From the NCBI GenBank assembly GCA_000004695.1, contig CM000150.2, forward strand, positions 2,912,001-2,976,000: 64,000 bases of DNA. Direction: 5' to 3'. The notes beneath the pieces were generated by a model. It did not search any database. It had not been told where the DNA came from and worked only from the letters and a program-made list of their open reading frames with translations. The DNA is from Dictyostelium discoideum (Eukaryota). This document shows positions 1,781-54,259 of the stretch, in pieces. The first letter of the stretch is position 1; every line of letters begins with the position of its first letter. The translations under genes and the position numbers were made by a program.

Positions 1781-4700
1781 ATGATAAATAAAATTTCTCG
1801 TTTTAAAATATTATTATTGTTTATTTTTATTATTTCATTGACATGTGCTCAAGATGGTAAGTTTTTAATTATTTTCTTTTTTATAAAACATTTGCAAATA
1901 TTGACTTTTTTTTTGAAAAAAAAAAAAAAAAAAAAAAAATTTTAGAGGAATTAATATCAACACCTGAAGGGTATTACGATTTAAAACGGTTTAAAAGATT
2001 TCAACACTATAAAAATATCCAACCCAATGAAGAAGCAGGATATACAGATTTATATTATCCAGATGTTTGTAAAAATGCTATAAGGAATAGAGATGGAGCT
2101 CCAACATTTAATCAGAGAAGCTTTCCAGGTTATACAGGAGTATTCGACACTTTACTAATAACAAAGGGTATTTATCATTGTAAAATTCATAAAAATACAT
2201 CATTTTGAAAAACTTAACATTAACATTTCACCATTATCATTTCATTCAATCAAAGGTACCAATATGACATTGGATTCAACCGGTTTCCTTACTGGTCTGG
2301 GTATCTGGTCACTCTTGACTTTATGTGTTGAAGGAAATTTAACGGTACTTTATAATCCAGATGAATTTTCTTTCGTACCTGTTCATAGGTTAGTTATACT
2401 ACCAGGTGGAACTATAACATCCCATGCAAATTCATTTCTATTCTGGGATACTTACCAAGTTGATGAGAATTTTCAAGAAGAATTAAACAAAAGAGTAAAG
2501 ATTGATCCTTTTAATTTTTTCCCTGGTCTACTAGTCTTGGGAGGAAATTTAAATTTATTTGGTAATAGTCAATTGACTTATACTGCTAAACGATTGAACG
2601 ATACTACATTGGAACTATCAACTCCATTTTTAAATATGAAATTTCTATGGAATAAATATATAATTACAATCTTTACAGAATCAATACCACAAGGTGATGA
2701 TTGTCTTTTTAATATGGATTCAGATAAAAGAACTTTTTACTTAATTAAAACCAACTATGGTACTTGCAATCCATTACGGGAAACAGATAAACTCATGAAA
2801 GTAGTAATCTCATACAACCGATATGAGGATAATTACTCAAGCTATATATCTCTTTTTTCAGATTATTATGGTTTCGAACCAAATGAAGCTTCTATTTTTA
2901 TAACAGGTGATTCAAATGTCTATATTGAAAATTATCTTATTAAAAATTTAGGCAAAACAAAAAATAATGCATACAGTGATACAAAATTAATATTTTCACC
3001 AAATAATACAAGTGAAGTTATAGGGTTTATAAATGGTACCAATCAAAGATTTAGAAGTTCTTTATATATAGAGTTTTCAAATAATGTTATCATTAAAAAT
3101 TGTGTAATTATAGAATCTTCTTCAGAAACAAGATCACCGTTAGTATTTTTTGGTTCAAACGTATATTTATCAGATAATTTAATTTCAAGTAAATCTGGTT
3201 CAAGTTTAATAGCACAATATGGAACTGAAAATATTCAATCTATAAATAATTTTTATTTTCAAAAAGGTGTTTCACATCAAACTGCCTCTCAAATATTAAA
3301 TCCAATTAATATGGATTTTGGAAATGAAGGAAATGGCATTTATTCAGTATCACCAAATCTTTTATCAAGTGATGATTTTTTTATTGGTCAAAATTATTCA
3401 ATTACTTTTAACTTTATTGCCAATAGGTCAAAAATTACTGGTTTTGATCAAGATTGTTATGCACCATGTTTTAGTGATTCAATCAATTTTTCAAATAAAA
3501 TTCAGTATCCTGTAGATTTTAAAATTTTTAATCCAAAGTTTTTACCAACAAATAATACCAATAGCGATTGGTATATTTTAAATATAAATGATAATGGAAA
3601 TCAACCAGGTACCTATTATACAGTAAAAAATTTAACAACTTTAGATCCCGTACAGTTTTCATTGGATAATAGCGCTTTATCCTTTTTAGGTCTAGAAGCA
3701 AGTGAAAATTTTAAAATGAATGGTAATGCCAAAAGATTGGATATTGTTAATTCAATTATCAGTTCAAAAGCTTTAACCAACCAACAACAAATAATTTCAA
3801 AAGTTTCATCATCAGCTATTAGCTTTAAAAATTCTTATATATACAGTAAATTAGGTCAACAAATTACACCTATAGATAATCAGATTTATGGATCATTAAT
3901 TACACCATTTTATTATAATGATTCAGATATTTTAAATCAAGTTAAAATTTTATCAATTTTTCCCAATGTCCCTTTTCAAATTGTATCAGGTTCTATATTA
4001 AATGTTAGCATAAACCTTCAAATTATTTCAACGGCTGATATTTCATGCACTTTCTCTTCAGATAATTCTACTTTTAGTACAACAATTTTGGTTAACCCAT
4101 CAGACGGAAGTTGTGTTTTACCACTTGTTTTTGAAAAAGAAGGTTATTTTAATTTAAAAGTCACATTAAAGATTTCAACATCAAAGGATTATTATTATAT
4201 AGTTGATTTTCCAAAGATTACAGTATATAATGAATATTTATTTTATTCAGGATGGGTAATGATTGATTCAAGCACAGATGAATTTCTATTTGAAGGTAAA
4301 ATATTTAAATCAGGTTGCCAACAACAGGTATTAGGTAATTGTACAATATCAACAAATTCAAAGTTTATAAATGGCTTGCCAAATGTAACAGAAACAGATG
4401 AACTTAATAGATTATTTTCAAGTGGTATAACATCAATCAATCCATATGAACCTGTGACAATTACAATACCAATTGATAAAGAATCAAAAAAGAATCAAAT
4501 CCAATTATTTTTTACTCACCAACCAATTGATATAGAATATAGTCTATTATCAATATATGTAGAAAATCAACCAATATTCCTTTTAGAACAATTACAAAGT
4601 GGTTTAGGTTCAACATTTAAAAATTTAACATTTAATTATGAAAATTCAAAATCACTAGAAATAATCAACATTTCTTTCACAACAAGAGGTGATATCTATT

Positions 4701-5675
4701 TAACTTCAATGGCGGTTTATTCATCAGCCATCCCAATAATCGTTACACCAACACCAACATCAACAACATCAACACCAACACCAACATCAACAACAACATC
4801 AACACCAATTCCGACAACAACACCTACAACAACACCAAAAACATCAAAAACAACCTCCAAAAACAAATTAAAAATTGCTTTACCAATTTGCCTTTTTGCT
4901 CTTTTGGTTGCTGTTGGAGTTTTAATATGTTTTATTTTCAGAAAAAAAAAACAAAAGAAACAAAAATTAGATAATAATATGGAGGATGGAAGTGAGATGT
5001 CTTCAATTAAAATTAAAAAAGAAAATTATAATTCTTTTAACAAGTTTAAAGAGTCAACAGTATTTAAAAACGATGATTTTAAAAATTATTCCAATCCAAC
5101 CGAAACAACAATTTATAGCACTTCCGATTCACTTTTAAACTTTGTTGGCTCTGACTTTTTAAATTACTCTGACCCAAACATCCCCTTATCCTTTAGTAAA
5201 AATATTTTAGAATTTGGATTAAAAGGTTCAAAATGCGATATCAATACCTTCCTTTCCGATTCTTTACGAATAACAAATAACTCTAATATTATATTATGTA
5301 TTTGTACAGTTCTTCCAAGAAATGACTCTGGTGAAGTAAGAATTTTTTGTTTTTTTATTATTATTATAATGAATTTAATTAACTAATCAATAATGAATTT
5401 TTTTTTCAGGTAAATGTTAGTCCAGATTCTTTTGAATTAGATCCAAATCAATCAAGAGAGATAGAATTTTCTTTAAAGTTAAATTGCACAACAAGAGTAG
5501 GTTGAATTTTTATAATTGAATTATTATAATTTAGTTAATATATATACTAACTGCACATCTATTTATATCCTAGTTTTTTGAAAGATTTGCTATTGAGGCT
5601 AGACATACTCACAGTTTCAAGTCAATTCACACTCACCTTTTCATTCATGTTGAATCTAAGATTTCCTCTAAAGTA

Positions 5676-5713
<38 letters not shown>

Positions 5714-6690
5714 GATTTTAACTTAACTTTTCTTTAGTTGGATATAAAAGAGATTGAAGTTAAAGAATTGATTTCACAAAATAATTTATCAACTGTTAAT
5801 ATAGCAAATTATAGAGGTTTACAAGTTGTTTTGAGAAAGATTAAAACTCATAGCGCAAATTACACCAAAACTTACTCTCAAGCAATCAAAAAATTCTACA
5901 CAGAAATGGATATACTCTCAAAGTTAAAAAACAAAAATATTGTTTCATTTATTGGTTGCACTCACGACTCTTCTCACCTTTGGATTGTTACTGAATATGC
6001 ACCATTGGGATCTCTTAGTTCTCTTATCCATCAAAAGAAAGAAAAACTTTCATTAATTCAAAAAGTCAAGTAAGTAAAAAAAAAAAAAACAATAATATTA
6101 TAATTTAGTTCTTTTTTCTAATATTATTAATAGGTTAATGTTAGATACAGCAAAGGGGTGTGAATTTCTACACTCAAATGATATTACGAATTGTAATATA
6201 AAATCAAATAATTTATTACTCTTTTCAACAATGGAAAAAGATGATGTTTGTGTAAAAATTTCAGATTTTGGTATAAAAAGTAATTATTATTATTTTTTAA
6301 ACAATTGTTATTTTTTATACAATGATTATTTCTAACTTTTTACAAAAAAAAAAAAATAAATAAATAAAAATAGAATTTGAAGTACAAAACCAAAATGAAA
6401 AAGAAATTTTTAAAGATGAAAAAGATCAAAAGCTAATTGATGTTTATGAATTTGGAATTACATTCTATGAAACAATGCTTGAAGAAACTCCAGAAAACCT
6501 ATCTAATTTAATATTGGAAGGTGAGAGACCAACTCTTGATTTGGAAAAATTAGATGCAGACATTAGAAACATAATTGAAAGATGCTGGAACCAAAACAAA
6601 AGGTCAACATTTTCAGAGATTAGTATTTCACTAAAAGAAAAATATACAAAATTGTTGGAGAAAAATAATGAATTAATACAAGAGAATTAA
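1781..6690 (+). CDS. Receptor-like membrane protein, paralog A: signal peptide, beta-helix-like extracellular domain, Thr/Pro mucin-like stalk, one transmembrane helix, cytoplasmic degenerate (pseudo)kinase domain
   Basis: Eight exons inferred: 1781-1856, 1946-2167, 2256-5335, 5410-5496, 5574-5672, 5738-6069, 6134-6279, 6374-6690. Splice phases check out and the exons align with paralog C. The signal peptide is [23 protein letters not shown]. Repeated 'GxSNVxIxN' units resemble a parallel beta-helix. The stalk is [31 protein letters not shown] and the TM helix is [22 protein letters not shown]. The kinase-like region keeps VVLRKIK and ISDFG but has no Gly loop, has HRDLKPDN replaced by NCNIKSNN, and has no APE segment. 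Confidence 0.7.
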
Positions 6691-6699
6691 TTTAAAAAC

Positions 6700-6960
6700 T
6701 AACAATAAAAACAAGATAATTTATTATTATCTATGAAATTAGAAATATTTTTTTTTTTTAAATTATTGTTAATATTATTTGGATTACTACAAATGATATT
6801 AAAATAGAGATAGTAGATTTAGAGTTAATAGTAGGTGAAGCTGCAATTAAGTGTTAAACACTATTATTATTTGTTGTAGTTGTTGTCGATTTACTTGATT
6901 TTACAACTGGTTGGAACTCCAGATGTTGTACCGTTTGTAATGGAACAAGGAAAATAAAAA
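6700..6960 (-). pseudogene. Truncated 3' remnant of a GPI-anchored paralog (gene D-like), stranded after a segmental duplication
   Basis: 6661-6960 is about 90% identical to 10020-10330, which is the 3' UTR of the kinase gene plus the last ~80 codons and hydrophobic C-terminus of the minus-strand gene 10116-13271. No upstream body is present. Confidence 0.6.
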
Positions 6961-7137
6961 ATAAGATATTAACAAATGTTTTTATTGAAGATAATTTTGG
7001 TAAAAACCAATTAAAATTTTTTTTTTCTTTTTTTCAATCTCTTAGAAATATGCCTTATTTTTTTTTTTTTTTTTGGATGGCATTCGTTTTTTTTTTTTTG
7101 GAAGACATTTTTTTTTTTTTTCTTATATTCAACAAAA

Positions 7138-10050
7138 TGAAATTAGGACAAAGGATATTTATTTTGATATGCTTAGTTATCAACTCTTTCTCTAATTGTA
7201 AGTCAACAATTAATTAAATATTATTCATTTTTTTATTAAAAAAAAAAAAAAGACTAAAAAAAAAAAAAAAAAAGGCAGTCTTGTGGTTTCACCAAATGGT
7301 TATTATAACATTTATCGAGAAAATAATTTTGGGAATATTTTAAATTTAAAGCCAACAGCAGAAAACAAATTACAAGATTCATATTATCCAGGTGTTTGTA
7401 GCAATGCAGGAAAAAATAAAGATGGTGTGACTAGTTTTTTAATATCCTCTTTCTCTATTTTTTTTTATAAATTACATCAACGTTATTGTTACAAAAGGTA
7501 TGTAAAATTTTATTTTAAATAGAATCATATTATGAAATATAAAATATTAACCAAATGCAATTAATTAACCAATTAGGTTCACATATGGTATTGGGAGATT
7601 TGGAATATTCTAAAATGAGTAATGTTAGAACTTTATTGAATATAGTTTGTGTTGAAGGCTCATTATTATTTTCAACACAAAGTGTTTTATATATGAGTGT
7701 CTTGGTAATGTTACCTGGTGGTAGTTTTGAATGTTTAGATTGCACAATTCGTTTTCGTGAACTACATCCAGCAAGCTCTCAGATCGATCCATTTGGTTTT
7801 TTCCCTGGTGTACTTGCTTTAGGTGGCTCGTTATCTCTTATTGGGAAGCAAAAAACTACATATTCTGCGACCAATATTGGTGGAAATATATTAGAGGTTC
7901 CAGATCTTTCAACATTAGATAGTTTCAATGGTTACAGTTTATCAATATTTAGTGAATCATTTCCTTTGGGAAAATCTTCAACCTTTTCCCATTATTTAAA
8001 TCGAATAAGTGTATTAGATTTGGTTATTCCGAAAACAGATAAAAATATAAGAGTCTTCTTTAATCCAAATTTTTCATTTTTCAACTCAGACAAAATCAGA
8101 TACCGCTTCAATTCATATCACAGGAAATACCAATGTATATAGAAAATTTTTACATCAATTCTTTTGGAAAGACTTCAAATGATCAATATAGCGATACAGA
8201 ATTGGTATTCTCACCTGATGATCCAAATTTAATTACAGAGTTTATAAATGGTAACAAAGATTTAGAAATTCATTATATATAGAGCATTCAAATAATGTTA
8301 CTATAAAAAATAGCGTTATACTTGAAACAAAAGAAACAAGATCACCATTAGTAATTTTTGGTTCAAATGTAAATATATCAGGTAATATAATATCAAGTAA
8401 TTCTGGTTCAAGTATTACAGGATTTGATAAAGATTGCTATTCACCATGCTATAATGATTCGATAAGAGTTTCAAGTAAAGTTCAACATTTATTAGTTCAT
8501 CAAATTACTCTGAGTTTTCTTTTTAGAATCAGCGAAACAGGTAGTAAACAAAGTTCAATTTATAAAATAAAAAATTCAAATTTAAGTTATCCAATTTCAG
8601 TATTATTAGAAAACAACGCATTTATATTAGATAATGTTTATGGTTTTGGTGATTTTAGTAATAATGGTATGATTAAAAGATTTGATATAATAAACTCAAC
8701 ATTAGATCCTTCTGCATCATCATCAATAAGTTTAAACAATTTTTCAAAAGCAATTTGTATTCAAAACTCATTTATGGATTTTAAATCATTTCAAAAACAA
8801 AACAATCAATTATTACACCTTACCTATACTATTTCGAAAATACAATGAATCTTATAAAAGTATCAAAAATGTATCCAAATGTAAACCATCAAATTTTAGC
8901 AGGTACAGTACTAAATATGGGTATTGAAATTATAATTATAGCACCATTATTTGGGAAAATGGATTGCATATTTGAAGATGAAAGTAGTGTTCAAACAATA
9001 CCATTTGATAAATCAAGTAATTCATGTGTTTTACCATACACATTTAAAAATGAAGGTTCATTTAATGTACGAGTTACATTATCACTAAATAACTCTGGAG
9101 ATAGTGTATTTCAAGTATATTTTCCAATGGTTACAGTATTTAATATATTCATTTTATTCAGGATGGGCAATGATTGATTCAAATATAGAAAAAGAAATAA
9201 TAATAGATGGTAATATATTTAAAAAAGGTTGTCAACAACAGGTATTAGGTAATTGTACAATATCAACAAATTCAAAGTTAATAACAGGTTTACCAAATGT
9301 GACAGAATCAGATGAACTTAATAGATTATTTTCAAGTGGTATAACATCTATCAACCCATATGAACATGTAACAATAACAATACCAATTGATAAAGAATCA
9401 AAAAAGAATCAAATCCAATTATTTTTCACACTAACCAATTGATATAGAATCTAGTCTATTATCAATATATGTAGAAAATCAACCAATATTCCTTTTAGAA
9501 CCATTACAAAGTAATTTAGATTCAACATTTAAAAACTTAACATTTCATTATGAAAATTTAAAATCTCAAGAAATAATCAACATATCTTTCACAACAAGAG
9601 GTGATATCTATTTAACTTCAATGGCGGTTTATTCATCAGCCATACCAATAATCGTTACACCAACACCAAAAACATCAAAAACTACCTCCAAAAACAAATT
9701 AAAAATCGCTTTACCGATTTGCCTTTTTGCTCTTTTGGTTGCTGTTGGAGTTTTAATATGTTTTATTTTAAGAAAAAAAAAAAACAAAAATTAACTAATA
9801 TTATGGAAGATGGAAGTGAGATGTCTTCAATTAAAATTAGTGTTTCACCTTTATCCAACTTGGGATAAAAAATGTTTTTTTTTTTTTTTTTTGATTACTA
9901 CCTTTTCAGTCCTTATTTTTTTTTGCGATCCAAAAAAAAAATTAAAAAATAAAATTCGGATTACAAATTAAAAAGGAATTTGTTTATCTTAAAGAAAAAT
10001 ATATAAAACTGTTTGGGAAAAGTAATGAATTAACACAAGAGAATTATTTT
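7138..10050 (+). pseudogene. Mosaic, frameshifted pseudogene of the receptor-like family, paralog B
   Basis: The signal-peptide exon MKLGQRIFILICLVINSFSNC at 7138-7198 and a second exon at 7269-7500 are intact. The main body is then broken into ORFs 7555-8142, 8845-9177 and 9104-9442 by frameshifts and deletions. Its 5' half resembles paralog C and 8845-9440 is near-identical to C. Its 3' part (9420-9840) is near-identical to paralog A but has lost the Thr/Pro stalk. Only a short kinase-domain tail remnant survives at 9960-10050. Confidence 0.65.
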
Positions 10051-10115
10051 AAAACTAACAATAAAAACAAGATAATTTATTATTATCTATGAAATTAGAA
10101 ATATTTTTTTTTTTT

Positions 10116-13100
10116 TTAAATTATTGTTAATATTATTTGGATTACTACAAATGATATTAAAATAGAGATAGTGGATTTAGAGTTAATAATAGGTGAAGCT
10201 GCGCTTAAGTGTTCACCACTATTATTATTTGTTGTAGTTGTTGTCGAAGAGTCTGTTGATTTACTTGATGTTTCAACTGGTGCGCCAGTTGTTGTACCGC
10301 TTGTAATTGGAATTGAATAAGGAATTGTATTATTTGAAAAAACTTCAATACCGCACATTGGTATTGAGTACTTGAGATTATCAGATGCCCACTCAATCAT
10401 GAGTGTAACATCAGTTGAACCACTATTCCAATAGAATGGCCCAAATTTTTGATATTTTTGATAAGGTGAAGAAGGTCTTGAGTATGGATCTTGATATTTG
10501 CCATTAATCTTAATTGTGAAAATGGGTAGTGAGTTGACGATGTTGGCTCCAGTGTAATCTGCATTATAAGAGTAGATGAAAAACTTGTATTCTGCATTTG
10601 CTGGTAAAGTTAAATTTACTGAACTTTTAATTCCTAATGTAACATCATTTGATAAATAAGATGTTAACATTGATACTTCATCAGTTGCGCTTCTGATAGT
10701 TCCAGTTGTAGATTCAGTTACCGTTGATGGAATTGGTGATACTTTACTGTATTTACCAGTTACCTTACATATTCCACTAATCCAACCACATTTAGTCCAT
10801 TGGTTGCCTAAAATTGATAGTGCTTTGGAAGATGAACTAAAATCTGGAGTTAAATCTATACCAAGGTAAAACAATTGAACACCAGAATCAACTATATAGG
10901 TTTGAGCATAATATGGTCCAACAATAGATGGATCATTTGGAGCATATAATAGATTGGATGAAACAATAACTGTATAAGGTCCATTAGCTTTTGGGAAATT
11001 GGCAACCTTGGAAATAGGAGAAGCACTTGAAGGGTAATCTATTGATTGAATTACTTCGTTTACAATATATTCTATATTTTGATTTGAACCTAAAAGGTAA
11101 TCGACGTTTGGTTTAAATGATAATAAAAGTTGATTTGAAGTTATTGAATTTACCATTGGGTTAAAATTATATAATGGATATAAACCAAGGACCCCTTCAA
11201 ATATATCTAATTTTGTACCATTTACATTAGAAAGGTATAGCTGTGTGGTATATTTCTTTAAGAATAAAGATGAACTAGAATAATGAGAGAAGAGAGAGTT
11301 TTTAATTGATAAATAACCACACGAAAATGTTTCAGAAAAGAAAACATAATTTCCTTTGGCAATGGAATTAACAATTGATATCGCATTGTATTTGCCATTT
11401 AGAGTGTTTGGAGCATTAGTAAATACTTTCTCATTTGAAGATAGAGAGTTTGCAATATATGGAGAATCATAAAAGATTTCAATGTTTGCTTGGTTTCCGG
11501 TTGAACCAAGAGTTAATGATGGTTGCTGTCGAATATACCAACCAAATTTTATATTAATTTTTAGTGGGGGTTGAGTTCCAATTGGATATCTAACACGTAC
11601 TTCAGTTTCACCTGCAAAGAAATTACTCAAAAAAACAACATTGTTCCAAACATTATTAGTTTTGTAATCAGCAGTGTTATCTTGAGTTAATCCAGAGTGT
11701 ATACCTATCAGTTTATCTGATGCTAAACCCAATGTTGAATATCTACTTTGAATTGGGATTACATGAATTGCACCTCCTTTGAATTTACCTTCAAATGCAT
11801 TTCCTTCATATGTAGAGTAGGGTGATGATGTTATTATACCAACATTTATATAATCTATGTCTGGATAGGTTCTATATGATGAAACTATGCTGGTATCCGA
11901 GTATAAAGAAATGAACCCATTATAGCTAATATCAAATTGCTCTGTTCCATATAATAATGAAATACCACTGATACCTTTTCTCAATGCAAATGCATTACCA
12001 GATATTGTACCAAATGAACGTTTAGCACCAATAAAAGCTCTTGGGATTTCACTTTCTCTTAAAGTATCAATGTAGTCATAATCCATGAACATATTATTCT
12101 TAATATTTACTGCTTCTTTATTATGTAATAAAGTTATTGGATATCTATCAGGTATATTTTTTCCATATTTAAGAACATTATAGTTTGAATTTAATATATT
12201 ATCATCGAGAACATTGCTTGTTGTATGTCCAATATCATAAAAAACACTGTTTTGAATATTAACAATCGATCCAAGAGTAAAAGTCATTGAACTATTATAA
12301 AACCCTTTGATAAATACATTTTTAGACCAAGGTCTCATTACAATATAACCACTTCCACCAAATATTTCTCCTATTATTTCACTTGGGGATGCTGCGATAG
12401 CACTAGTATAATATTGATCCATTGAATAATTAATATTGTAATTTGGATCATAACTTCCACTCATTCTAAATAAAGGTAATCCTGGACTTGAATAAGAAAA
12501 AGGAGTACGGAGGAATGAACCTCCATAAGAACCAGATTTTGATGTGTTCCTTCCTGCCCATATTGACTCAGTGTTAAAACCAATAATGTTAACTGTACCG
12601 CCCAAGGAGATAAAAGGAGATGTTTGAAGAGGATCCCAAGATGGGAAATTCCAATATTCAAAAGCGGGTAAAAATATTGTGTGATTAAAACTTGAAGATG
12701 GTTTTGATTCAAATACACCAGTTGGGAATATAATTGTTTTGGAGACTGTGTAATATGTATTAGCATTTGGATCAAGAACCAATTTTCCTTTAATAATAAT
12801 TGTATAAAGCCAACTGACTCTTCCATAAAACGTAACTGTTACTCCTTCTGGAATAACCAAAACATTTTTTAACAATAATAAACTTCCTGAAGGGTTTTCG
12901 TTAATGTTTATTGGTGGTGTAAATAAATCAGTGGTAAGAAAGTTTGTGTCACTATATATTGTGCAACTTGATTTGAAAGTGTATTTTACTGTATTTGGAT
13001 TTGACTCCAAGTCTGGATAAAAATCACCTTTGTAGTTTGGGTTTTCTGGATAAAAATTAATCTTGAAATGTGGCTGCCCATTAATATTTACACGTGGAGA

Positions 13101-13271
13101 GTTCCAATCGAATGAATAAAGTTCTTGAGAGTAAGTTTCTTATTTTTTTAAATTTATTAAGATTAGTAAATCTATAGGGAAAAAAAAATAAAAAATAAAA
13201 ACAGAAAATTTTAAATAAAAGTATATACTCTGATATAATATAATGACCAGCGTAACTAATAACTTTATCAT
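10116..13271 (-). CDS. Secreted, probably GPI-anchored paralog D of the receptor-like family, with no kinase domain
   Basis: Two exons: 13271-13229 (MIKLLVTLVIILYQ signal peptide, phase 1, GTATAT donor) and 13138-10116. The extracellular domain shares blocks with A and C (for example FISLGGTVNIIGFN versus ITLGGSLSLLGKQ). It ends in a Ser/Thr-rich stretch plus the hydrophobic tail STISILISFVVIQIILTII, which is typical of a GPI signal. There is no TM helix or cytoplasmic domain. Confidence 0.65.
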
Positions 13272-13959
13272 TGTAAAGAATAAAATTAATTTCTTTAAAG
13301 CGAAATCTGAAAATCAGATATTGTAAATTGTCAAAGGAAATTAAATTAGTTATTTCTTTTCATTTAAATAATATAATTAAGGGGTATAGACTATATGTTT
13401 GAAAGGCATCTTTAAAATTAAAGGAAAAAATGAAGAATTAGTATATCATTTTAAATAACTGTTCAATATTTAAATGAAAAAAATATATTTGAATTTTGGT
13501 TTTTTAATTTTTAGTTTTTAAATTTTTTTTTATTTTAAAAACAACTTTTTTTAAAATAAAAAATTGCAATTATTAACCACCTATAGCAGAAATGAATATT
13601 TCCAGTTTTTAAACGTTTTTTTTTTTATTTTTTTTTTTTTTATTATATTTTTCTACATGATTTTGTGTATTTTTATGTTTTTTTTTTTTTATTTAAATTT
13701 TGAAAATTTAATTTTCACTTTTTTTTTTTTTTTTTTTTTTTATCTTGAAATTTTTTTATTTTGTTTTAAGATCAAAAAAAAAAAAAAAAAAAAAAAAATG
13801 TTAATTCAATGATTATAAACATCATTTCTGAAATTTAATTTATTTCTTTCCTATGAAATAATAATTAAACACCACACCCCAACCATTAATTTTTTTATTT
13901 TTATTTTTATTTTTTTTTTCAAAATCTTCGCATTTTTGATTTTTTTTTTCTGAAATCTT

Positions 13960-13994
<35 letters not shown>

Positions 13995-14041
13995 CACATA
14001 CGACATTTTTTTTTTTTTTTTCTTATATATTGCTCCACAAG

Positions 14042-17000
14042 ATGAAATTAGAACAAAGGATATTTTTTTTAATATGCCTAGTTATCAACTCTTTCTCTAA
14101 TTGTAAGTCTACAATAAATTTATTTAATATTTTTCACATTTTTACTAACCTTTTAAAATAAAAAATAAAAAAATAAAAAATAAAATAATAAAATAATAAA
14201 AAAAAGGTAGTCTTTTGGTTGCTCCAGATGGTTATTATAACATTTACCGAGAAAATAAAATTGAAAATATTTTAAATTTAAAACCAAATGGTAACAAATC
14301 ACAAGATTCATATTATCCAGATGTGTGTAGTAAAGCGGTAAAAAATAAAGAAGGTGTAAAAAGTTTTATCTTATCTTCATTCCCTCTTTCAACTAAAGAG
14401 TATGCTAACGTTATTGTAACAAAGGGTATGTAGATTTTATTTTTATTTTTTATAGTAAATTATAGTATATTTATAAATATTAACAATAAGCAATTAATTC
14501 CTAGGTTCACATATGACATTGGGTGATGGAGAATATCATCAAATATTTAATATCAATAGATTTTTGAATATAGTTTGTGTTGAGGGTTCACTTGTATTTA
14601 GTACAAAAGATGTTGTATATATGAGTGCGTTGGTAATATTACCTGGTGGTAATTTTGAATGTATAGATTGCACCATCAAATTTCGAGATCTATATCCAAC
14701 CAACTCATTAATTGACCCATTTGGTTTTTTACCTGGAATTATTACTTTGGGAGGTTCATTATCTCTTTTAGGAAAGCAAAAAACTGTGTATAGTGCAGTT
14801 TTAATAGATGAAAATATATTAGAGGTTCAGGATATTTCATCACTAGATATTTTCAATGGTTATAGTTTATTTATTTTTAGCGAATCATTTCCTTTGGGAA
14901 AGGCATCAACTTTTACTTTTAATTCAAATCAAATAAAAGTTTTGGAAATCAAAATACCAAAAACAGATAAAAGCATTAGAGTATTTTTTTATTCAAGATT
15001 TTCTACTTTCTCAACTTCAACTACTGCTTCAATTCATATCACAGGTAACTCAAATGTGCATATCGAAAACTTTTATATAGACTCTTTTGGGAGGACAACA
15101 AACGATCAATATAGCGATACAGAATTGATTTTCTCTCAAGATGATCCAAATTTAATTACTGGGTTTATAAATGGTAGCAATCAAAGATTTAGAAGTTCTT
15201 TATATATAGAGCATTCAAATAATGTTACCATAAAAAATAGTGTTATACTTGAAAATAGAGGAGAAACAAGATCACCATTAATATTCTTTGGTTCAAATGT
15301 AAATATATCAGGTAATATAATATCAAGTAAATCTGGCTCAAGTTTAATAGCGCAATATGGAACTGAAAATATTCAATCAACAAATAATTATTATTCATTA
15401 TCTTTACCACTTTTAAAATCATTAAATTCAACTCTTGATAGTATGGATTATGGAAATGAAGGAAATGGTATTTTTTCGATATCGCCAAAAATAAATTCTA
15501 TTAATGATATATTCAATGGGCAAATAATAGCAATCAATCATATAATATTATCAGATAGATCAAGTATTACAGGATTTGATAAAGATTGCTATTCACCATG
15601 CTATAATGATTCGATAAGAGTTTCAAGTAAAGTTCAACATTCAGTGGAATTTAAAATAACAGGATCAACATTTATTAGTTCATCAAATTACTCTGAAAGT
15701 AGTTTTCTTTTTAGAATCAGCGAAACAGGTAGTAAACAAAGTTCATTTTATAAAATAATAAATTCAAATTTAAGTTATCCAATTTCAGTATTGTTAGAAA
15801 ACAATGCATTTATATTAGATAATGTTTATGGTTTTGGTAATTTTACAATTAATGGTCTTATTAAAAGATTGGATATAATAAACTCAACATTAGATCCTTC
15901 TGTAACATCATCAATAAGTTTAAGCAATTTTTCAAAAGCAATTAGTATTCAAAATTCATTTATGGATTATAGATCATTTCAAAAACAAAACAATCAAATC
16001 TATGGATCAATTATTACACCTTACCTCTACTATTTCGAAAATACAATGAATCTTATAAAAGTATCAAAAATGTATCCAAATGTAAACCATCAAATTTTAG
16101 CAGGTACAGTACTAAATATGGGTATTGAAATTATAATTATAGCACCATTATTTGGGAAAATGGATTGCATATTTGAAGATGAAAGTGGTATTCAAACAAT
16201 ACCATTTAATAAATCAAGTAATTCATGTGTTTTACCATACTTATTTAAAAATGAAGGCTCATTTAATGTACGAGTTACATTATCACTAACGAAATCTTTA
16301 GATAATATTATATTTCAAGTATATTTTCCAATGGTTACAGTATTTAATATATATTCATTTTATTCAGGATGGGCAATGATTGATTCAAATATAGAAAAAG
16401 AAATAATAATAGATGGTAATATATTTAAAAAAGGTTGTCAACAACAGGTATTAGGTAATTGTACAATATCAACAAATTCAAAGTTAATAACAGGTTTACC
16501 AAGTGTAACAGAATCAGACAAACTTAATAGACTATTTTCAAGTGGTATAACATCTATCAACCCATATGAACCTGTAACAATAACAATACCAATTGATAAA
16601 GAATCAAAAAAGAATCAAATCCAATTATTTTTCACTCACCAACCAATTGATATAGAAACCAGTCTATTATCAATATATGTAGAGAATCAACCAATATTCC
16701 TTTTAGAACCATTACAAAGTAATTTAGATTCAACATTTAAAAATTTAACATTTCATTATGAAAATTCAAAATCATTAGAAAAAATCAAAATTACATTTAT
16801 AACAAGAGGCGATATTTATTTAACATCTACAGCGATTTATTCATCAACTAACCAACCTATATATAACGAAGTTATTGGTATAAATGAACAATTAAATATA
16901 TTAGCAATTGTACTACCAATAACGATTTCATTGTTTGCAGCGGCATCAATATTGGCTGGTTATTTAGTAATTAAAAAATATAAAAAACCAAACATGTATT

Positions 17001-18199
17001 ATAATAGAAATACCAATGGAAATATCGGAATGAAGGTTTTCTCAACAAAATTTAAAAGAAGACCCAAAAAGGTAATACCACTTTCAATCCCATTAAGTAC
17101 AAATAGAATTACAAAGAAATCATTACAATCTTTAGATTCAATGGCTGAAAACCCTGTGATATTACTTTCCATTCCAGAATTGGAGAAAGCCAATGAACCA
17201 GAATTTAATCCTGAAAAAACTTTCTTACAAGAATCAGAATTATTAGATTTACCAACACCAAAGGTAGAACCAGAAGAGCCAAGAATTAATATTGTTCCCC
17301 TCCCTCGTTTTCCAACCGTATATAAAAAAGAAGATAACGATAAATTATTAAAAGAATTGAATATAACTGGTCCTATCACCTCTGAAAATATTGAATCATT
17401 CTTTGAAGTTGATGTTGGTTTGCCATCTTTAATAATAAAGAATGAATCTGAAATCATTCTACAAGAAATTGATTATATTGAAACTGGTGAAATTCAAGAA
17501 ATGGAAGGTAGCTTTTTGGAAGATAAATCAACTGATACAACCGTTATAGTAACAAAAAGTGATGGTTTACCTAAATTTTTTCAAACCAAAGTCTTTTCCA
17601 AACGATTTAATGATATATCCAAATTTGATAATGATTTCTTTGATCTAAAGGAATACATAGTTGAACATCAAGAAGAATCTTTTGAAATACCTTTTATGAC
17701 CTCGGAAGATGAAGTAGATGAAACCAAAATTAATATAATAGACTTTTTACTCAGTCCCAAATCTAATAAAGTTGCACTAAATATGTATTTAAAATCATTT
17801 CAAAATAGAAACCATAAACTTTGTTATGGAAAGTATGGTTCAAATAAAAATTCTATTCTTGTTATTGAAGGCACATCTTATTATTATGATTGTACAGATG
17901 TTAGGTTACCAATATCAACACCTCGTAGTAATCTTAATTTTGGAATAACAGATGGTAATAAATGTATAGTTGATAGAAAATATAGAGAAAGGTTACAATA
18001 TATAAATGTTTATAGTGAACCATTTAGAATTTATACTCTTTTTCCAGATAGTAATGATAATGTAACAATTACAACTTCAGAATGTTGTAAAGAAATAGAC
18101 CCATTTGGTTCATTAGATGTAGATATATTTGTAACTTTAAAAACAACAACCAAAGTAAGTATTTTAAAAAAAAAAAAAAAAAAAAAAGAATTATAAACT

Positions 18200-18230
<31 letters not shown>

Positions 18231-19347
18231 CATAAAAAAAACATAATAATAGTTTAATGAAAAAGTTACAATTCGTTATGAAACTGATGATAAAGAATTA
18301 GCATTTTCAACATTTGTTTATTTAAATTTAGAGAGTCAAGTATCATCAAAAATTGATTTTGATGAAATAGTTCTCGAAAAATATTTATCTGAAGGTTCAT
18401 TTGGAGTTGTATATAGTGCTATTTGGAGATCATCATCAGTTGCGGTCAAATTATTCAAACATCATTATTCTAAAGATGAAATTGATAAAGAAACATCAAT
18501 TTTATCAAAAATAAAACATCCAAATATAGTTTCATTCATTGGAAGTTTAAATTTTTTAAATACATATGGTATTGTAATTGATTATCATCCAAGAGGTTCT
18601 TTAAATTATTATACTCGTAATCAAAATATTAAACTATCAATGGTACAAAATATTAGGTATGTAATAATTAAAATATTATTATTTATTATTATTATATTAT
18701 TTATTAATTTTTTTTTTTTTTTTAGGATTTCATTGGATATTTCAAGAGCTTGTTCATTTCTTCATAAAAATGGTATTATTCATCGAGATTTAAAACCAGA
18801 TAATGTTTTAATTGTTTCATTTGATCCAGATTCTTCAATTTGCGCAAAGATATCAGATTTTGGTACTTGCAGAGGTATGTTTTTTTTTTTTTTTTTTTTT
18901 GATATATTCAAATTTTTTTTTTTTTTTTTGAATTCAACTAACTATTTTTGTTTTAAATTAAAAAAAGAAATTAATGGAAAGCATGAATTAAACTCAAAAG
19001 CTGGAACAACACGTTATATGAGTCCAGAAATTTTAGAAGGTCTTCCATATACATATTCTACAGATGTTTATTCTTTTGCAATCCTTTTCTTTGAATTACT
19101 TTCCGGAAGAGTACCATTTAGAGAAATTCCAAAAAGAGAAATTCCAAGATTTGTACGTTTAGGAACAAGACCTCGTTTAGATCAAGATGTATTTGCCGAT
19201 AATGATATATCATTAATTTTATTAGCTTGTTGGAATCCAAATCCTCGTGGTAGACCAACATTTGATACTTTAATAGATTTATTAGAAAAATTATTAAAAA
19301 AATATAAAGAAAGAGCAAAAAGAAATAAAAAAAATCAAAATCAATAA
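14042..19347 (+). CDS. Receptor-like kinase, paralog C: signal peptide, beta-helix-like extracellular domain, transmembrane helix, long cytoplasmic linker, intact Ser/Thr-type (TKL-like) kinase domain
   Basis: Six exons: 14042-14102, 14207-14425, 14505-18154, 18253-18656, 18726-18874, 18968-19347. The TM helix is LAIVLPITISLFAAASILAGYLVI. The kinase has GSFGVVYSA, VAVK, HRDLKPDN, DFG and TTRYMSPE, with introns inside the catalytic domain. Confidence 0.75.
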
Positions 19348-21711: not shown

Positions 21712-26961
<5,250 letters not shown>

Positions 26962-29555: not shown

Positions 29556-29915
29556 TTAACTATCGGCAGCCTTTGCTTTAATTTCACCTAATAATGCAGA
29601 GTGATTGTTTGGTTTAATTGTAGTATTTTCATTAATCTTTGGTGCAGATTTATCATCAGTCTCAGCGTGTTTTAATTTAGCACCTTGTTCAACCTCGGAA
29701 AGTAAACTTGCGTGATCGTTCTTCTTAATGTGGACATCTACGTTTTGGTAAAATATAAAAATTAAAAAATTAGTTTAAAATTTAATTTATTAATTTATTT
29801 ATATAACGGGATATTTACCAGAACCAATCTTTGGGGCACTCTTATCTTGGGTTTCGGTGTGTTTTAAATCAGCACCTTTGTTGATTTCAGCTAATAATGG
29901 ATTTGGGGCAGACAT
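29556..29915 (-). CDS. abnA: Actobindin-type protein with two WH2 repeats, divergent copy
   Basis: Two exons of 97 and 182 nt with a phase-1 intron. The protein is MSAPNPLLAEINKGADLKHTETQDKSAPKIGS/DVHIKKNDHASLLSEVEQGAKLKHAETDDKSAPKINENTTIKPNNHSALLGEIKAKAADS, about 92 aa. The repeated LKH(A/T)ET(Q/D)DKSAP motif is the actobindin signature. Confidence 0.7.
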
Positions 29916-30535
29916 TGTGTGTATATTTATATTTATTTATAATTTGTATGTTTGTGAGTTAATTAAAAAATTAATTTTTTTTTTGGGTTTTTATTAAAAA
30001 AAAAAAAAAATAATAAAAAATTAAAATTAAAAAAAAAAAATTAAATAAAAATTAAAATTAAAAAAATTAAAATTAAAATTAAATTCATTGAAAATCAAAA
30101 CAGTTGGCTTGATTTGTGTTATTAAAAAAAAAAATATTTTCTTTTTTTTTTTTTTTTTATTTTTTTAATTTTTTATTTTTTATTTTTTTGGTTTTTTTTT
30201 ATTATCAATTCAATTTGGAAATTCAGCCCCAGTTCAAAGAAAATTATTGACAATGAAAATAAGAAATAACAATTTTTTAAAATAAATGGAATTTTGTTTG
30301 GAAATTATAGTTACTATAAACCAAATTATTTTTAATAATTGATTTTTAAATAAAGAAAAAAAAAAAAAAAAAATATATATTTAGTAATAAAATTTTAAAT
30401 AAAGAAAAAAAATATTTAATAATTAATTTTTAAATAAAGCAAAAAAATAATTTTAACAATTTTTTTTTTTTTAATACAACATTTTTTTTTTATTTTATTT
30501 TTTTTTTTCGTTAATAAATAATTTAACATTATAAT

Positions 30536-30924
30536 TTATTCTTGAGCTTTTGATTTGATTTCGCCTAATAAAGCAGAGTGGTTGTTGGATTTGACGGTGG
30601 CACCTTCAGTGACTGGAGCTGAACGATCTTGAGTTTCAACATGTTTTAATTGAGCACCTTTTTCAACTTCACCAAGTAAAGAAGAGTGATCATTCTTTTT
30701 GATTGGAACGTCTGTTAATTTTATTATTTTGGATATTAATTATTTGGAAATATTTTTTTTAAAAAAAAAAATAAAAATAAAACAAAATAAATAAATAAAT
30801 ATAAAAAATTTTAAAATAAAATATTACTTTCAATTATTGGGGCACTCTTATCTTGGGTTTCAGCGTGTTTTAAGTCAGTACCTTTGTTGATTTCAGCTAA
30901 TAATGGATTGGCAGTGGTAGACAT
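30536..30924 (-). CDS. abnB: Actobindin-type protein with two WH2 repeats
   Basis: Exons 30924-30828 and 30711-30536. The protein is MSTTANPLLAEINKGTDLKHAETQDKSAPIIE N VPIKKNDHSSLLGEVEKGAQLKHVETQDRSAPVTEGATVKSNNHSALLGEIKSKAQE. Confidence 0.7.
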
Positions 30925-31010
30925 TATGTTAATTTATATTTATTTATTTATGATTTGTTGTTAAGGAAAATTAAAATAAAAATTTTTGAAATTTATATTA
31001 AATCAAAAAC

Positions 31011-31064
<54 letters not shown>

Positions 31065-31584
31065 AAAAAAAAGGCAACTGTTTCAAATAATAAAAAATTT
31101 AATTAAAATAATGTTTGATATTTTTAAAAAAAAAAATGATAAAAAATGAACTTCTGAAATAGATATTTTTTTTTTTTTTTTTAAAAAAAAATTTATTAGA
31201 AAAAAAAAAAAAAAAAAAAATTAATAATAAAAAAAAAAATGTATATGAAAAAAAATTTATATATAAAAAATTTTGAATACAAAAATGAATGAACGATTAT
31301 AAAATTATTTTAAATATTATTTATTAGTTATTATTTTATTTTTTTTTATTTTATTTTTTTTTTATTGATAATAGTATGGATTATTTGTTCATTTTCAACT
31401 AAAATAATTTTAAACCCACCCAAGATCCACAAAAAAAAATTTTCAACCCATTTTTTTTTTTCAAACCATCCAATTTTTTTTTTTTATTTTTTTTTTTTTT
31501 TGGTATAAAAACATTCACTTTTTTTTTTTTTATTTTATCAATCACAAACAAAAATAAATACAAATATAAATATAAATAAACATA

Positions 31585-31987
31585 ATGTCTACCACTGCCA
31601 ATCCATTATTAGCTGAAATCAACAAAGGTACTGATTTGAAACACGCTGAAACCCAAGATAAGAGTGCCCCAATAATTGAAAGTAATATTTTATTTTTTAA
31701 ATTTATTTAATATATTCCACCCTCTCCCCCCCCCCCACCCACACAAATAATATTAAAAAACTAATCCAATATTTTTTTTAATAAAATAAAAAATAATAAT
31801 AATAATTAACAGACGTTCCAATCAAAAAGAATGATCACTCTTCTTTACTTGGTGAAGTTGAAAAAGGTGCTCAATTAAAACATGTTGAAACTCAAGATCG
31901 TTCAGCTCCAGTCACTGAAGGTGCCACCGTCAAATCCAACAACCACTCTGCTTTATTAGGCGAAATCAAATCAAAAGCTCAAGAATA
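31585..31987 (+). CDS. abnC: Actobindin-type protein, inverted duplicate of the 30536-30924 gene with an identical protein
   Basis: Exons 31585-31681 and 31812-31987. Exon 2 is 100% identical at nucleotide level to the reverse complement of 30536-30711. Exon 1 differs by two synonymous changes. Confidence 0.7.
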
Positions 31988-32048
31988 AATTATGAAAATC
32001 GAATAATATAATTAAAATTATAATAAAAAGGGTTTTAATTAATGTATA

Positions 32049-32083
<35 letters not shown>

Positions 32084-32146
32084 ATTTATTTCTTTCTATT
32101 TATTTATTTCTTTTTTTAATAAATGTTTTATTAAAACTAAAATTGA

Positions 32147-32177
<31 letters not shown>

Positions 32178-41550: not shown

Positions 41551-42279
41551 ATTTTTAATTATCTTTTTTTTTTTTTTTTTTTTTTTTTCCTCTAATCTAA
41601 TAATCAACATCATTTTCCCATCCATTTTTATTTTTATTTTAATTTTAATTTTAATTTTAATTTTTATTTTTATTATTATTATTTATTATTCTCTTGGGAC
41701 TTTCCAATATTTTCATTAAATACAATTTTAGTAAAAAATGGATAACGCTTCCAAATATTAACAATTCCTCTTGAATTTTACCTATAAACTTTACATTTAT
41801 TTAATTATTTATTTAATAACAAAAAAAAAAAAAAGGTTAATAATTATTTTATTATTATTTTTTATTTTTTTATTTTTTTGTTTTTTAAAAAATTATATTA
41901 CCAATAACACCATTATTTTTATTTTTTTTATTATTTTTGGTTTTTTTTAAGAGGGTAGTAAGATATAAAAAATTAAGCACTAATGTGGTGAAAAGTAATT
42001 TCATGTGGAGCTGGTTGGTTGGTAATCTATTTTTTAATTTTCTAACCCAAAAAGGAAGAAAGAAAGGTATAAAAGAATGTTTTAAATTTAGAAACCAAAA
42101 AAGTTTCAATATAAATACAAAAAAAAAAAAAAAAAAAAAAGTTTTTTCATTCACTCATTCATTCATTTAAAAAATAAATAAATAAAAAAAAAAACAAATA
42201 AATAAAATTATTTTTCAACTCAAACAATTAATATTAATAATATTAATAATAAAAATAATAATAAAACTAAATAAATAAA

Positions 42280-42993
42280 ATGTCATTATGTAATAGATCA
42301 AATTTAGAAGCAATTGTTAAAGGTATTCAAACCAATAAAATATTAGAAGTATTTGATAAATATTATCATGATGAAATTGTAATGTATGAAAATGGTGATT
42401 CAACAAATCGTGTTGGTAAAGCTGCAAATCGTATAGCTGAAGAATCTTTTGTAAATAATTCAATTATTCATGAAGCAAGATTAATAAAGTTAATCGCTGA
42501 TGGTGACAATACAGCATATGAAATGTTCATGGATTTCACAAATAGTGGACACCGTATCAAAGAAAATCAATGGGCATTCCAACATTGGTCAAATGGTTTA
42601 GTCATTAAAGAAGAGTTTGTCAAAATTAAAACACCACCAACACCAGAACCAACAAATAATATAAAATCAAATTTAGAAGCAATTATTGAAGGTACTCGAG
42701 ATAATAGAATATTAGAAGTATTCGATAAATATTATCATCCAGATGTAATTATGTATGAAAAAGGTGATCCAACTAATCGTGTTGGTAAAGCTGCTAATCG
42801 TAAAGCTAAAGAATCTTTTGTAAAAAAAGGAAGAATCAATGAAGCAAAAGTATTACAATTAATAATTGATGGTAATGATACAGCATATCAAATGTATATT
42901 GATTTTACATATTGCGGAAATCGTATTCAAAAGACTCAATGGGCTGTTCAACAATGGTCAAATGGTTTAGTTATCAAGGAAGAGTTTTATTAA
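42280..42993 (+). CDS. SnoaL/NTF2-like fold protein with an internal 2x tandem duplication; divergent copy 1 of a 5-member array
   Basis: 237 aa. The two halves (about 110 aa each) are about 65% identical to each other and share NLEAI(V/I)KGIQ...ILEVFDKYYH...VIMYE(N/K)GD...NRVGKAANR...DGDNTAYEMF...QW..Q.WSNGLVIKEEF. This is consistent with SnoaL_2/DUF4440-type alpha+beta barrels. Confidence 0.55.
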   Translation: MSLCNRSNLEAIVKGIQTNKILEVFDKYYHDEIVMYENGDSTNRVGKAANRIAEESFVNNSIIHEARLIKLIADGDNTAYEMFMDFTNSGHRIKENQWAFQHWSNGLVIKEEFVKIKTPPTPEPTNNIKSNLEAIIEGTRDNRILEVFDKYYHPDVIMYEKGDPTNRVGKAANRKAKESFVKKGRINEAKVLQLIIDGNDTAYQMYIDFTYCGNRIQKTQWAVQQWSNGLVIKEEFY

Positions 42994-43283
42994 ACATTTT
43001 TTTAAAAAATGTTCACAACCCTAAAAATAAAGAATATACATATTTTTTATCAACTTATTTAAATATATTTTTAATTATTAATTTCATTGATTTTATATTT
43101 ATGATTTAATTATTTATCATTCATTTTTTGTAATTCTTTTTTATTCTGAGTAAGAACAAGAGGAATATATTTTATATAAAAGAGATTTAAAAAAAAAAAA
43201 AAAAAAATAAAACAAAAAAAAATTTTTTTATAAAAAAATCTAATAAAAATTAAAAAAAAGAATTTTATTTTTATATTTAAAGA

Positions 43284-46177: not shown

Positions 46178-46222
<45 letters not shown>

Positions 46223-46223
46223 A

Positions 46224-47477: not shown

Positions 47478-47512
<35 letters not shown>

Positions 47513-50519: not shown

Positions 50520-50523
<4 letters not shown>

Positions 50524-54179: not shown

Positions 54180-54259
<80 letters not shown>

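Follow-up and report, generated by a model that had tools for sequence, protein, structure and literature searches.

A kinase-less gdt4/gdt6 hybrid gene of Dictyostelium, probably formed by unequal crossing-over, is decayed in strain AX4 and intact in related lineages

Hybrid genes formed by unequal crossing-over are classically represented by haemoglobin Lepore and anti-Lepore, the red-green opsin hybrids, and CYP21A2/CYP21A1P. Here we describe gene B, a kinase-less hybrid of the neighbouring genes gdt4 and gdt6, from a 64,000-nucleotide stretch of the Dictyostelium discoideum AX4 genome (GenBank assembly GCA_000004695.1, contig CM000150.2, forward-strand positions 2,912,001 to 2,976,000; this whole stretch is hereafter called the window, and coordinates refer to it unless stated otherwise). 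As in the classical systems, the parents of B are tandem paralogues, a single switch lies in a tract of high identity, a flank is duplicated, a reciprocal deletion may exist, and conversion is ongoing. Unlike those systems, the two parents encode proteins that are only ~45% identical to each other, and they share essentially one recombination-competent tract, which is itself maintained by conversion across species. Gene B was first pointed out in a reading of the window from sequence alone (the original prediction), which described it as a chimeric pseudogene next to a duplicated gene-end junction. We compared the orthologous locus in seven other assemblies, namely those of D. firmibasis (L002), D. 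citrinum (L003) and D. dimigraforme (L008), two from 'D. cf. discoideum' (L001 and L007), and two that are labelled D. discoideum yet are ~88-92% identical to the window by BLASTN (L004 and L006). On our reading, B is a new and well-resolved instance of known processes: hybrid gene formation by non-allelic homologous recombination, concerted evolution, and differential pseudogenisation. A search for paper text naming DDB_G0270544/546/548/550 found none, and a literature search on gene conversion and tandem duplication in Dictyostelium returned nothing on this locus.

Both parents belong to the GDT family of receptor-like kinases of the tyrosine kinase-like (TKL) group, in which a signal peptide and a conserved ectodomain precede one membrane segment and a C-terminal kinase (PMC1420674). 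The kinome table in the same paper lists Gdt4 as active and Gdt6 as inactive, the latter with the motifs VVLR and NCNIKSNN. Gene B likewise has a signal peptide, a Gdt ectodomain, and a single transmembrane segment, but it differs from the family in lacking a kinase domain and in ending ~30 residues past the membrane segment. Because it has no kinase domain, it is missing from the kinome catalogue. Pseudogenes of the gdt family have introns in common with their parent genes and show local stretches of more than 90% identity, and one of them, Gdt3_ps, is listed by name (PMC1420674, Figure 6 legend and supplementary table). Like the AX4 copy of B, Gdt3_ps is an unprocessed, duplication-derived, frameshifted pseudogene. 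However, Gdt3_ps keeps its kinase motifs (IAVK, HRDLKPEN, and DFG), whereas B lacks the domain, is a chimera of two parents, and is intact in other lineages. An ectodomain and a membrane anchor with no Pfam kinase match are also present in gdt5 (DDB_G0285895, 'Growth-differentiation transition protein 5', 1176 residues) and in the proteins P0022-P0024 (947-959 residues), although these come from other loci, are only 37-45% identical to gdt6 or B, and are not gdt4/gdt6 hybrids. Kinase loss is therefore a recurrent event in the GDT family, as seen in gdt5, P0022-P0024, and B.

Gene B has one clean switch from gdt4-like to gdt6-like sequence. Specifically, at the sites that separate gdt6 from gdt4 (n=509), 374 to the left of position 9546 agree with gdt4 and 30 with gdt6, whereas to the right of 9567 the corresponding counts are 1 and 104. 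The switch was located by the maximum chi-square method, and its value of 361 was matched in none of 1000 permutations. Thus, the prediction of a mosaic gene, like gdt4 in the middle and like gdt6 at its 3′ end, is borne out, and breakpoint mapping against both parents does not permit a uniform alignment of B to either paralogue. The segment from 9567 to 9839 is 95% identical to gdt6 and ~47% identical to gdt4, and takes in the stalk together with the membrane segment and the start of the cytoplasmic part. Sequence reading and homology place a Thr/Pro-rich stalk and a single predicted transmembrane segment at 9650-9780, again with 95% DNA identity to gdt6.

Beyond the membrane segment, the gdt6 reading frame gives way after ...SSIKI to the residues SVSPLSNLG and a stop codon, which are followed by the rest of a 149-bp filler and, after it, by the 3′-terminal ~60 bp of the gdt6 coding sequence. 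Absent from B is the ~1.6-kb cytoplasmic and kinase region (corresponding to 5016 to ~6615 in gdt6), and the 149 bp at 9840-9987 stand in its place. Indeed, no kinase-like sequence is found between 9840 and 9987, and the intact B protein of another lineage (P0017) has no Pkinase match in Pfam. A source for the filler was sought by local alignment to the cytoplasmic regions of gdt6 and gdt4 and to the first 21 kb of the window, and only poly-T and poly-A matches were obtained, the best score being 45 against a shuffle maximum of 41. The stalk of B is also shorter than that of gdt6, by ~84 bp within the Thr/Pro run, of which ~72 bp are common to the other B copies and 12 bp are specific to AX4. 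This internal deletion had been noted in the original prediction. It does exist, but it amounts to no more than a small slippage event within low-complexity sequence. B is defined instead by the loss of the whole kinase region, and a ~220-bp deletion at 8407/8408 is likewise larger; neither of these two losses had been described.

At its other end, B keeps the layout of the family, with exon 1, exon 2, the long exon, and introns (TBLASTN of P0017 on the window recovers exons 1-3 and the long exon), and the sequence from 7017 to 7137 aligns with the region upstream of gdt4. Because the introns and the upstream region are retained, B is an unprocessed duplicate. Aligned over 98-99% of its length, the P0017 protein shares 80-86% identity with gdt4 proteins, and it has the conserved Gdt ectodomain. 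The protein collection searched contains no AX4 protein model for B.

The second signature of the rearrangement is a duplicated junction between gene ends. A self-BLASTN comparison shows that window positions 6631-6945 (J1) recur in direct orientation at 9988-10312 (J2), with 87.9% identity over 330 alignment columns (E ~1e-115) and 93% identity at aligned, ungapped positions. A repeat of 6661-6960 at 10020-10330 had been predicted, and it is confirmed with true edges that lie ~30 bp further left. The two copies are spaced 3358 bp apart. Each comprises three pieces, namely ~60 bp from the very end of a gdt6-type coding sequence, a 3′ intergenic stretch, and the C-terminal tail (~60 codons) of gene D on the minus strand. 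In J2 this tail belongs to the intact D gene, whereas in J1 it is a relic of a second copy, D′. J1 and J2 cluster together and apart from D. citrinum, whose single junction is only 76-83% identical to either. The right-hand breakpoint of the D′ relic is identical in the window, L001, and L004, and L007 also has the J1 junction and the D′ relic. Between the relic and the gdt4-type upstream sequence lies an AT-rich scar (6946-7016) that has no match to D or to the intergenic region between D and gdt4; homology to the gdt4 upstream region begins at ~7017-7054.

Outgroup comparison reveals the arrangement from which this locus arose. In D. firmibasis, D. citrinum, and D. dimigraforme the order is gdt6→ ←D gdt4→, B is absent, and the junction occurs once, an arrangement that agrees with the proposal that the duplicated unit was a convergent gene pair. 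L001, L004, and L006 have the order gdt6 - D′ - B - D - gdt4. Copy number at the locus therefore varies among species and strains, a comparison that the original prediction had proposed as a check. The possibility that B is an assembly artefact was rejected, given that B and J2 recur in the independent assemblies L001, L004, and L006. The kinase-deletion junction ...SSIKI/SVSPLSN of the window is likewise found in L001 and L004. Because breakpoints are common to these lineages, the hybrid and both large deletions predate the split of the B-bearing lineages, which differ from AX4 by a synonymous divergence (dS) of ~0.09-0.19. Because D. citrinum has no B, the event occurred after the split from that species (dS ~0.44). 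Identities point to the same interval: the 3′ part of B is 95% identical to gdt6 versus 81-84% to D. citrinum gdt6, and the parts of B agree in age (95% for the 3′ part, 93% for the junction, and 91-92% for the 5′ part against its closest gdt4 type) when set against 71-84% in comparisons with D. citrinum. The claim that these events are recent does not hold, since the breakpoints are shared by lineages at dS ~0.09-0.19 and the likeness of the middle of B to gdt4 is due to conversion; 'recent' is true only relative to the age of the GDT family.

The 5′ part of B requires separate explanation. It had been said to match gdt4, and it is indeed of gdt4 type, but over 7000-8100 the B copies of AX4 and L001 reach only 72-79% identity to gdt4 from their own genomes, and 90-93% to the gdt4 of L004 and L006. 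The difference resides in a sharply bounded divergent block at window positions ~11960-15212, within which AX4 is 65-79% identical to L004 and L006, whereas the flanks are 90-98% identical. In contrast, AX4 and L001 are uniformly 91-97% identical across the locus. D contributes its N-terminal ~480 codons to the block and gdt4 its first ~300, with the head-to-head intergenic region lying between them. Inside it, dS reaches 0.8-1.2 for D and 0.47-0.75 for gdt4, compared with ~0.1-0.25 outside, and the ratio of non-synonymous to synonymous divergence (dN/dS) is 0.1-0.3. This synonymous divergence equals or exceeds that from D. citrinum. The divergence of the block therefore points to two very old haplotype classes, gamma (AX4 and L001) and beta (L004, L006, the gene in L007, and every B copy); a third allelic class of D/gdt4 may exist. 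The gdt4 parent of B was of the beta type, a class of which AX4 has no trace other than B. The low identity of its 5′ part to AX4 gdt4 arises because AX4 has the other, very old haplotype at D/gdt4. An ectopic donor for this part was not found: the retrieved proteins include no other family member with more than 50% identity in this region.

The switch from gdt4 to gdt6 lies at the 3′ edge of a tract encoding the membrane-proximal ectodomain, which is a hot spot of gene conversion present in gdt6, B, and gdt4. The two parents are 84-87% identical only in this hot spot, and elsewhere they are 74% identical or their similarity is undetectable. In D. citrinum, the corresponding sequences of gdt6 and gdt4 are 100% identical over the core and 96.3% over 409 bp, whereas AX4 gdt6 is 88% identical to D. 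citrinum gdt6. Similarly, gdt6, B, and gdt4 of L001 are 98-99% identical in the hot spot, and the three copies within one genome are generally 92-99% alike. Quartet counts between species yield 20-24 sites for concerted evolution and 0-1 for orthology. For B from 8408 to 9546, the comparisons of AX4 with L001 and of L001 with L004 give 6-10 concerted sites and 0 orthologous sites per segment. AX4 B and gdt4 also share substitution-free runs of 191, 160, and 151 bp, inside which AX4 B still differs from L004 B, and three gaps summing to such a length did not occur in 20,000 simulations (P < 5e-5). B and gdt4 had been called nearly identical at 8845-9440, which slightly overstates the measured 96.6%, and this likeness exists because conversion continues, not because B is young. 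Thus, where the original prediction offered unequal crossing-over or gene conversion as the source of the mosaic, both operate in this cluster. The 3′ edge of the hot spot is also the place where homologous recombination would be expected to join gdt4 to gdt6 by a crossover.

The label 'pseudogene' fits B in some lineages and not in others. Relative to the intact open reading frame (ORF) of L004, the long exon of AX4 B has nine frameshifting deletions (2, 2, 4, 31, 5, 13, 2, 2, and 7 bp), and there is one in-frame stop codon, at 9432. L001, L004, and L006 retain in their B copies the sequence that AX4 lost at 8407/8408. L001 B is broken by other lesions (2-bp, 447-bp, and 29-bp deletions), none of which is common to AX4, and B therefore decayed independently in the two lineages. 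In contrast, the B genes of L004 and L006 have an uninterrupted exon of 864-867 codons within models of 957 and 960 residues. The comparison of these two copies gives a dN/dS of 0.27 (26.5 synonymous and 27.5 non-synonymous differences; Fisher p 9.5e-6), beside 0.23 for gdt4 and 0.54 for gdt6, and B thus appears to be under purifying selection in the L004/L006 lineage. Together, the intact frame and this ratio suggest that in at least one lineage B functioned as a membrane-anchored Gdt ectodomain protein with no kinase. Such a protein may serve, for example, as a kinase-less decoy or as a co-receptor.

We consider it likely that B is the product of non-allelic homologous recombination, in the form of unequal crossing-over, between gdt4 and gdt6. 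The ancestral order would have been gdt6→ ←D gdt4→, with a membrane-proximal ectodomain tract of ~320-400 bp kept alike by conversion. A crossover in this tract or at its 3′ edge would have joined the promoter and 5′ two-thirds of a beta gdt4 to the 3′ part of gdt6, placing a second junction of gdt6 3′ end and D tail downstream of the hybrid and producing the order gdt6 - D′ - B - D - gdt4. Two deletions common to the B-bearing lineages would have followed, one removing most of D′ and leaving 188 bp of its tail, the other removing the ~1.6-kb cytoplasmic and kinase region of B. B would thereby have been reduced to a signal peptide, the Gdt ectodomain, the transmembrane segment, and a tail of ~30 residues. 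These events would fall after the D. citrinum split and before the lineages of the D. discoideum complex diverged, and B would since then have exchanged sequence with gdt4 and gdt6 by conversion, staying intact in L004 and L006 and decaying independently in AX4 and L001. The switch point, the common breakpoints, the lack of B in the outgroups, the concerted evolution, the state of each ORF, and the dN/dS values are direct results, whereas the order of the crossover and the deletions, like any function of an intact B, is what we infer from them.

Several observations weigh against this account. It needs at least three events, a crossover and two deletions, and neither a kinase-bearing B nor a full D′ was found as an intermediate in the seven assemblies. 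The 149-bp filler has no identified source and could point to a complex, replication-based rearrangement. The low identity of the 5′ part of B to gdt4 from its own genome (72-79%) can be accommodated only by accepting, in addition, a very old difference between haplotypes at gdt4. With respect to function, the low dN/dS of the intact copies could partly reflect constrained gdt4 sequence imported by conversion. In addition, the assemblies used for comparison are GenBank records of an unpublished style, in which indels may be inaccurate. Finally, L007 may not be a later deletion product but a haplotype parental to B, and the events would then have come in another order.

The L007 locus (9460-15274 of that assembly) consists of gdt6, the D′ relic, and then a single full-length, kinase-bearing gene, with neither D nor a second junction. 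This gene has a beta, B-like 5′ part and is gdt4-like from ~9550 onwards, and its long exon is interrupted at ~10887 by either an assembly error or decay. It shares 29 sites with B against the gdt4 of L004 and L006. Another 21 sites unite all four B copies (AX4, L001, L004, and L006) to the exclusion of the L007 gene, and its 5′ part is therefore sister to the B clade rather than nested within it. A further 8 + 6 derived sites are common to the L007 gene and some of the B copies, among which L001 B is its nearest match (94-96%). The locus could be the product of a reciprocal-type deletion between B and gdt4, or it could be a D-deleted beta chromosome of the kind that was parental to the crossover; a sister position is compatible with either history.

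The latter possibility permits the same mechanism with another order of events. D would first have been deleted on a beta chromosome, leaving gdt6 - D′ - gdt4(beta), and the gdt4 of this chromosome would then have crossed over with the gdt6 of a normal chromosome to produce gdt6 - D′ - B - D - gdt4 in one step, with the kinase deletion coming later. L007 has exactly this parental layout with the same D′ relic, and the 21 sites place its gene outside the B clade. This order also requires one event fewer, and it directly explains the wide gap seen in AX4 and L001 between the 5′ region of B, which is beta, and that of the downstream gdt4, which is gamma. However, L004 and L006 have beta D and beta gdt4 downstream of B, such that an extra exchange would be needed under this order as well. 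Furthermore, the 8 + 6 derived sites that the L007 gene shares with subsets of B copies, and its closeness to L001 B, are also expected from a deletion between B and gdt4, and the exon break limits what L007 can show. We therefore regard this order as possible, though somewhat doubtful.

A more radical alternative is that a single replication-based rearrangement, such as template switching by fork stalling (FoSTeS) or microhomology-mediated break-induced replication (MMBIR), copied the junction, the 5′ part of gdt4, and a short transmembrane piece of gdt6, in which case a full D′ and a kinase-bearing B never existed. The presence of both 'deletions' in every B-bearing genome with no intermediates found would be accounted for in this way, as might the unexplained 149-bp filler at 9840-9987 and the 70-bp scar at 6946-7016. 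In addition, the nine bases GTGTTTCAC just past the junction resemble GTATTTCAC near the 3′ end of gdt6, a weak resemblance that may reflect a templated insertion. Nonetheless, the filler and the scar are AT-rich, low-complexity sequences with no significant match, and the switch resides at the edge of the sole long tract of high identity between gdt6 and gdt4, as predicted by homologous recombination and not by microhomology. A replication-based origin is accordingly improbable in our judgement.

That B is an old third paralogue, which predates the D. citrinum split, was lost elsewhere, and owes its likeness to its neighbours to patchy gene conversion with no crossover, draws on the demonstrable activity of conversion in the cluster and on the 75% identity of the AX4 B 5′ part to gdt4, which is near the 72-74% seen between gdt4 and its D. 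citrinum and D. firmibasis orthologues, but this idea is very hard to sustain and was rejected on outgroup synteny and beta-type gdt4 alleles: B is absent from three outgroups with otherwise collinear loci, its 5′ type sits at gdt4 itself in L004 and L006 (91-92% identical to B), and the junction, in which J1 and J2 cluster to the exclusion of D. citrinum, holds noncoding sequence and the tail of D, neither of which would arise through conversion among gdt genes.

The features on which the preferred account, unequal crossing-over between gdt4 and gdt6, is based are collected in Table 1.

Table 1. Positions of genes, gene segments, junction copies, and conversion tracts at the gdt6-gdt4 locus of the AX4 window
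Feature	Position	Strand	Remarks
Gene A = gdt6	1781-6690	+	DDB_G0270544, 'probable inactive serine/threonine-protein kinase gdt6'; spliced model, translation
gdt6 exons	1781-1867, 1945-2169, 2252-5335, 5410-5496, 5574-5672, 5738-6069, 6134-6279, 6374-6690	+	
Conversion hot spot, gdt6 copy	4315-4631	+	codes for membrane-proximal ectodomain
J1, gdt6 3′ end	6631-6690		
J1, intergenic stretch	6691-6757		
J1, D′ relic	6758-6945	-	in-frame stop and small deletions
Scar	6946-7016		AT-rich; between D′ relic and gdt4-type upstream sequence
Gene B	7017-9870	+	ATG at 7137; kinase-less gdt4/gdt6 hybrid, decayed in AX4
B, beta gdt4-type segment	to ~8270	+	
B, gdt4-like segment	8270-9546	+	93-100%
B, AX4-specific deletion	8407/8408	+	~220 bp (= gdt4 ~15343-15560); in undeleted copies, 6-bp direct repeat TCAAGT on either side
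Conversion hot spot, B copy	9228-9546	+	gdt4-to-gdt6 switch at its 3′ edge
B, switch	9546-9567	+	
B, gdt6-like segment	9567-9839	+	
B, new C-terminal tail	9840-9868	+	SVSPLSNLG-stop
Filler at kinase-deletion site	9840-9987	+	149 bp; same in L001, shorter in L004
J2, degenerate gdt6-type 3′ end	9988-10047		
J2, intergenic stretch			
J2, tail of intact D ORF	10116-10312	-	
Gene D	10116 to ~13250	-	uncharacterised ~1000-residue protein; contains 964-residue ORF; upstream end approximate
Gene C = gdt4	14042-19347	+	DDB_G0270550, 'probable serine/threonine-protein kinase gdt4'; kinase domain intact
Conversion hot spot, gdt4 copy	16434-16754	+	

The translation of the spliced gdt6 model is 100% identical to the D. 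discoideum protein ACTFIT_007820 and shares a 90% cluster with AX4 Q55DV2, while gdt4 is 100% identical to AX4 Q55DU7 over 1217 residues and has a Pfam Pkinase domain (E 1e-47). These identities place the window on chromosome 1 of an AX4-type D. discoideum genome. The kinase domain of gdt6 (5738-6690) has no glycine loop and no APE motif, and NCN replaces HRD. These degenerate motifs are consistent with the 'inactive' call of the kinome paper (PMC1420674). The gene is conserved in four species despite its degenerate kinase, with a dN/dS of 0.36-0.54.

Gene D is placed tail-to-tail with B and head-to-head with gdt4. By inspection, its product has a hydrophobic N-terminus (MIKLLVTLVIILYQ...), a Ser/Thr-rich stretch, and a hydrophobic C-terminal tail (...SGEHLSAASPIINSKSTISILISFVVIQIILTII, followed by the stop codon), and a putative surface protein anchored by glycosylphosphatidylinositol (GPI) is a reasonable reading of these features. 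Its homologues are confined to dictyostelids. One of them is named 'G8 domain-containing' in UniRef, but this is a UniRef name only, as Pfam searches with D and with its D. purpureum homologue gave no match even at E 5. A BLASTP comparison of D with the gdt4 ectodomain gave a best match of 27% over 201 residues (E 0.46), which is not significant, and we claim no homology. This weak match between D (10116-13010) and gdt4 residues 268-454 centres on ...IKN...ISGN...SG.S...YGTE and, though not significant, may hint at a beta-helix-like fold common to both proteins.

Relatives of D adjoin gdt paralogues elsewhere, as seen for the pairs ACTFIY_000498/499, ACTFIY_006882/883, and ACTFIZ_008345/346. 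Another gdt cluster from D. cf. discoideum (ACTFIZ; L005, 1-23229) has a parallel history of segmental duplication and contains three gdt copies that are 90-94% identical, the middle one of which is kinase-less (948 residues; P0022). A truncated D-like tail in that cluster (6966-8034) is 95.8% identical to the tail of a full paralogue (21908-23080), and fragments of an M1 peptidase are duplicated there as well. The convergent gdt/D pair has thus been duplicated repeatedly, which supports, at the level of the family, the earlier idea of such a pair as the duplicated unit.

The window, which has a GC content of ~20-30% and long poly-A/T runs, contains other repeats outside this locus. Five units of ~1.5 kb, 82-89% identical, form a tandem array at 42159-50118, each with an ORF of 236-237 residues that comprises two SnoaL-like halves (an internal repeat of ~350 bp). 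Directly downstream of this array, on the minus strand at 50520-54907, is an element resembling retrotransposons that lack long terminal repeats, whose ORF has endonuclease/exonuclease/phosphatase and reverse-transcriptase domains. Direct and inverted repeats with 69-78% identity over 200-700 bp cluster at 29568-32155.

The old haplotype block over D and gdt4 is the most unusual observation at this locus and the one likeliest to repay more work. Its cause is possibly balancing selection or introgression acting on a divergently transcribed pair of surface-protein and receptor genes. One might further speculate that long-term balancing selection acts on a co-evolving pair of surface protein and receptor kinase, like tgrB1/tgrC1, and that B would be a kinase-less decoy receptor derived from one allele class and selectively kept or discarded by lineage, but we think this fuller scenario unlikely.

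The mechanisms apparent at this locus are textbook ones, and their wider significance is modest. What the locus offers is a view of how the GDT family evolves, in which unequal crossing-over at a tract maintained by conversion makes new domain combinations, here a kinase-less receptor, and in which the resulting hybrid gene survives in some lineages and dies in others. Gene B adjoins two genes of a family that is implicated in the switch from growth to differentiation. For those who work with AX4, this laboratory strain is without a gene that related strains appear to keep.

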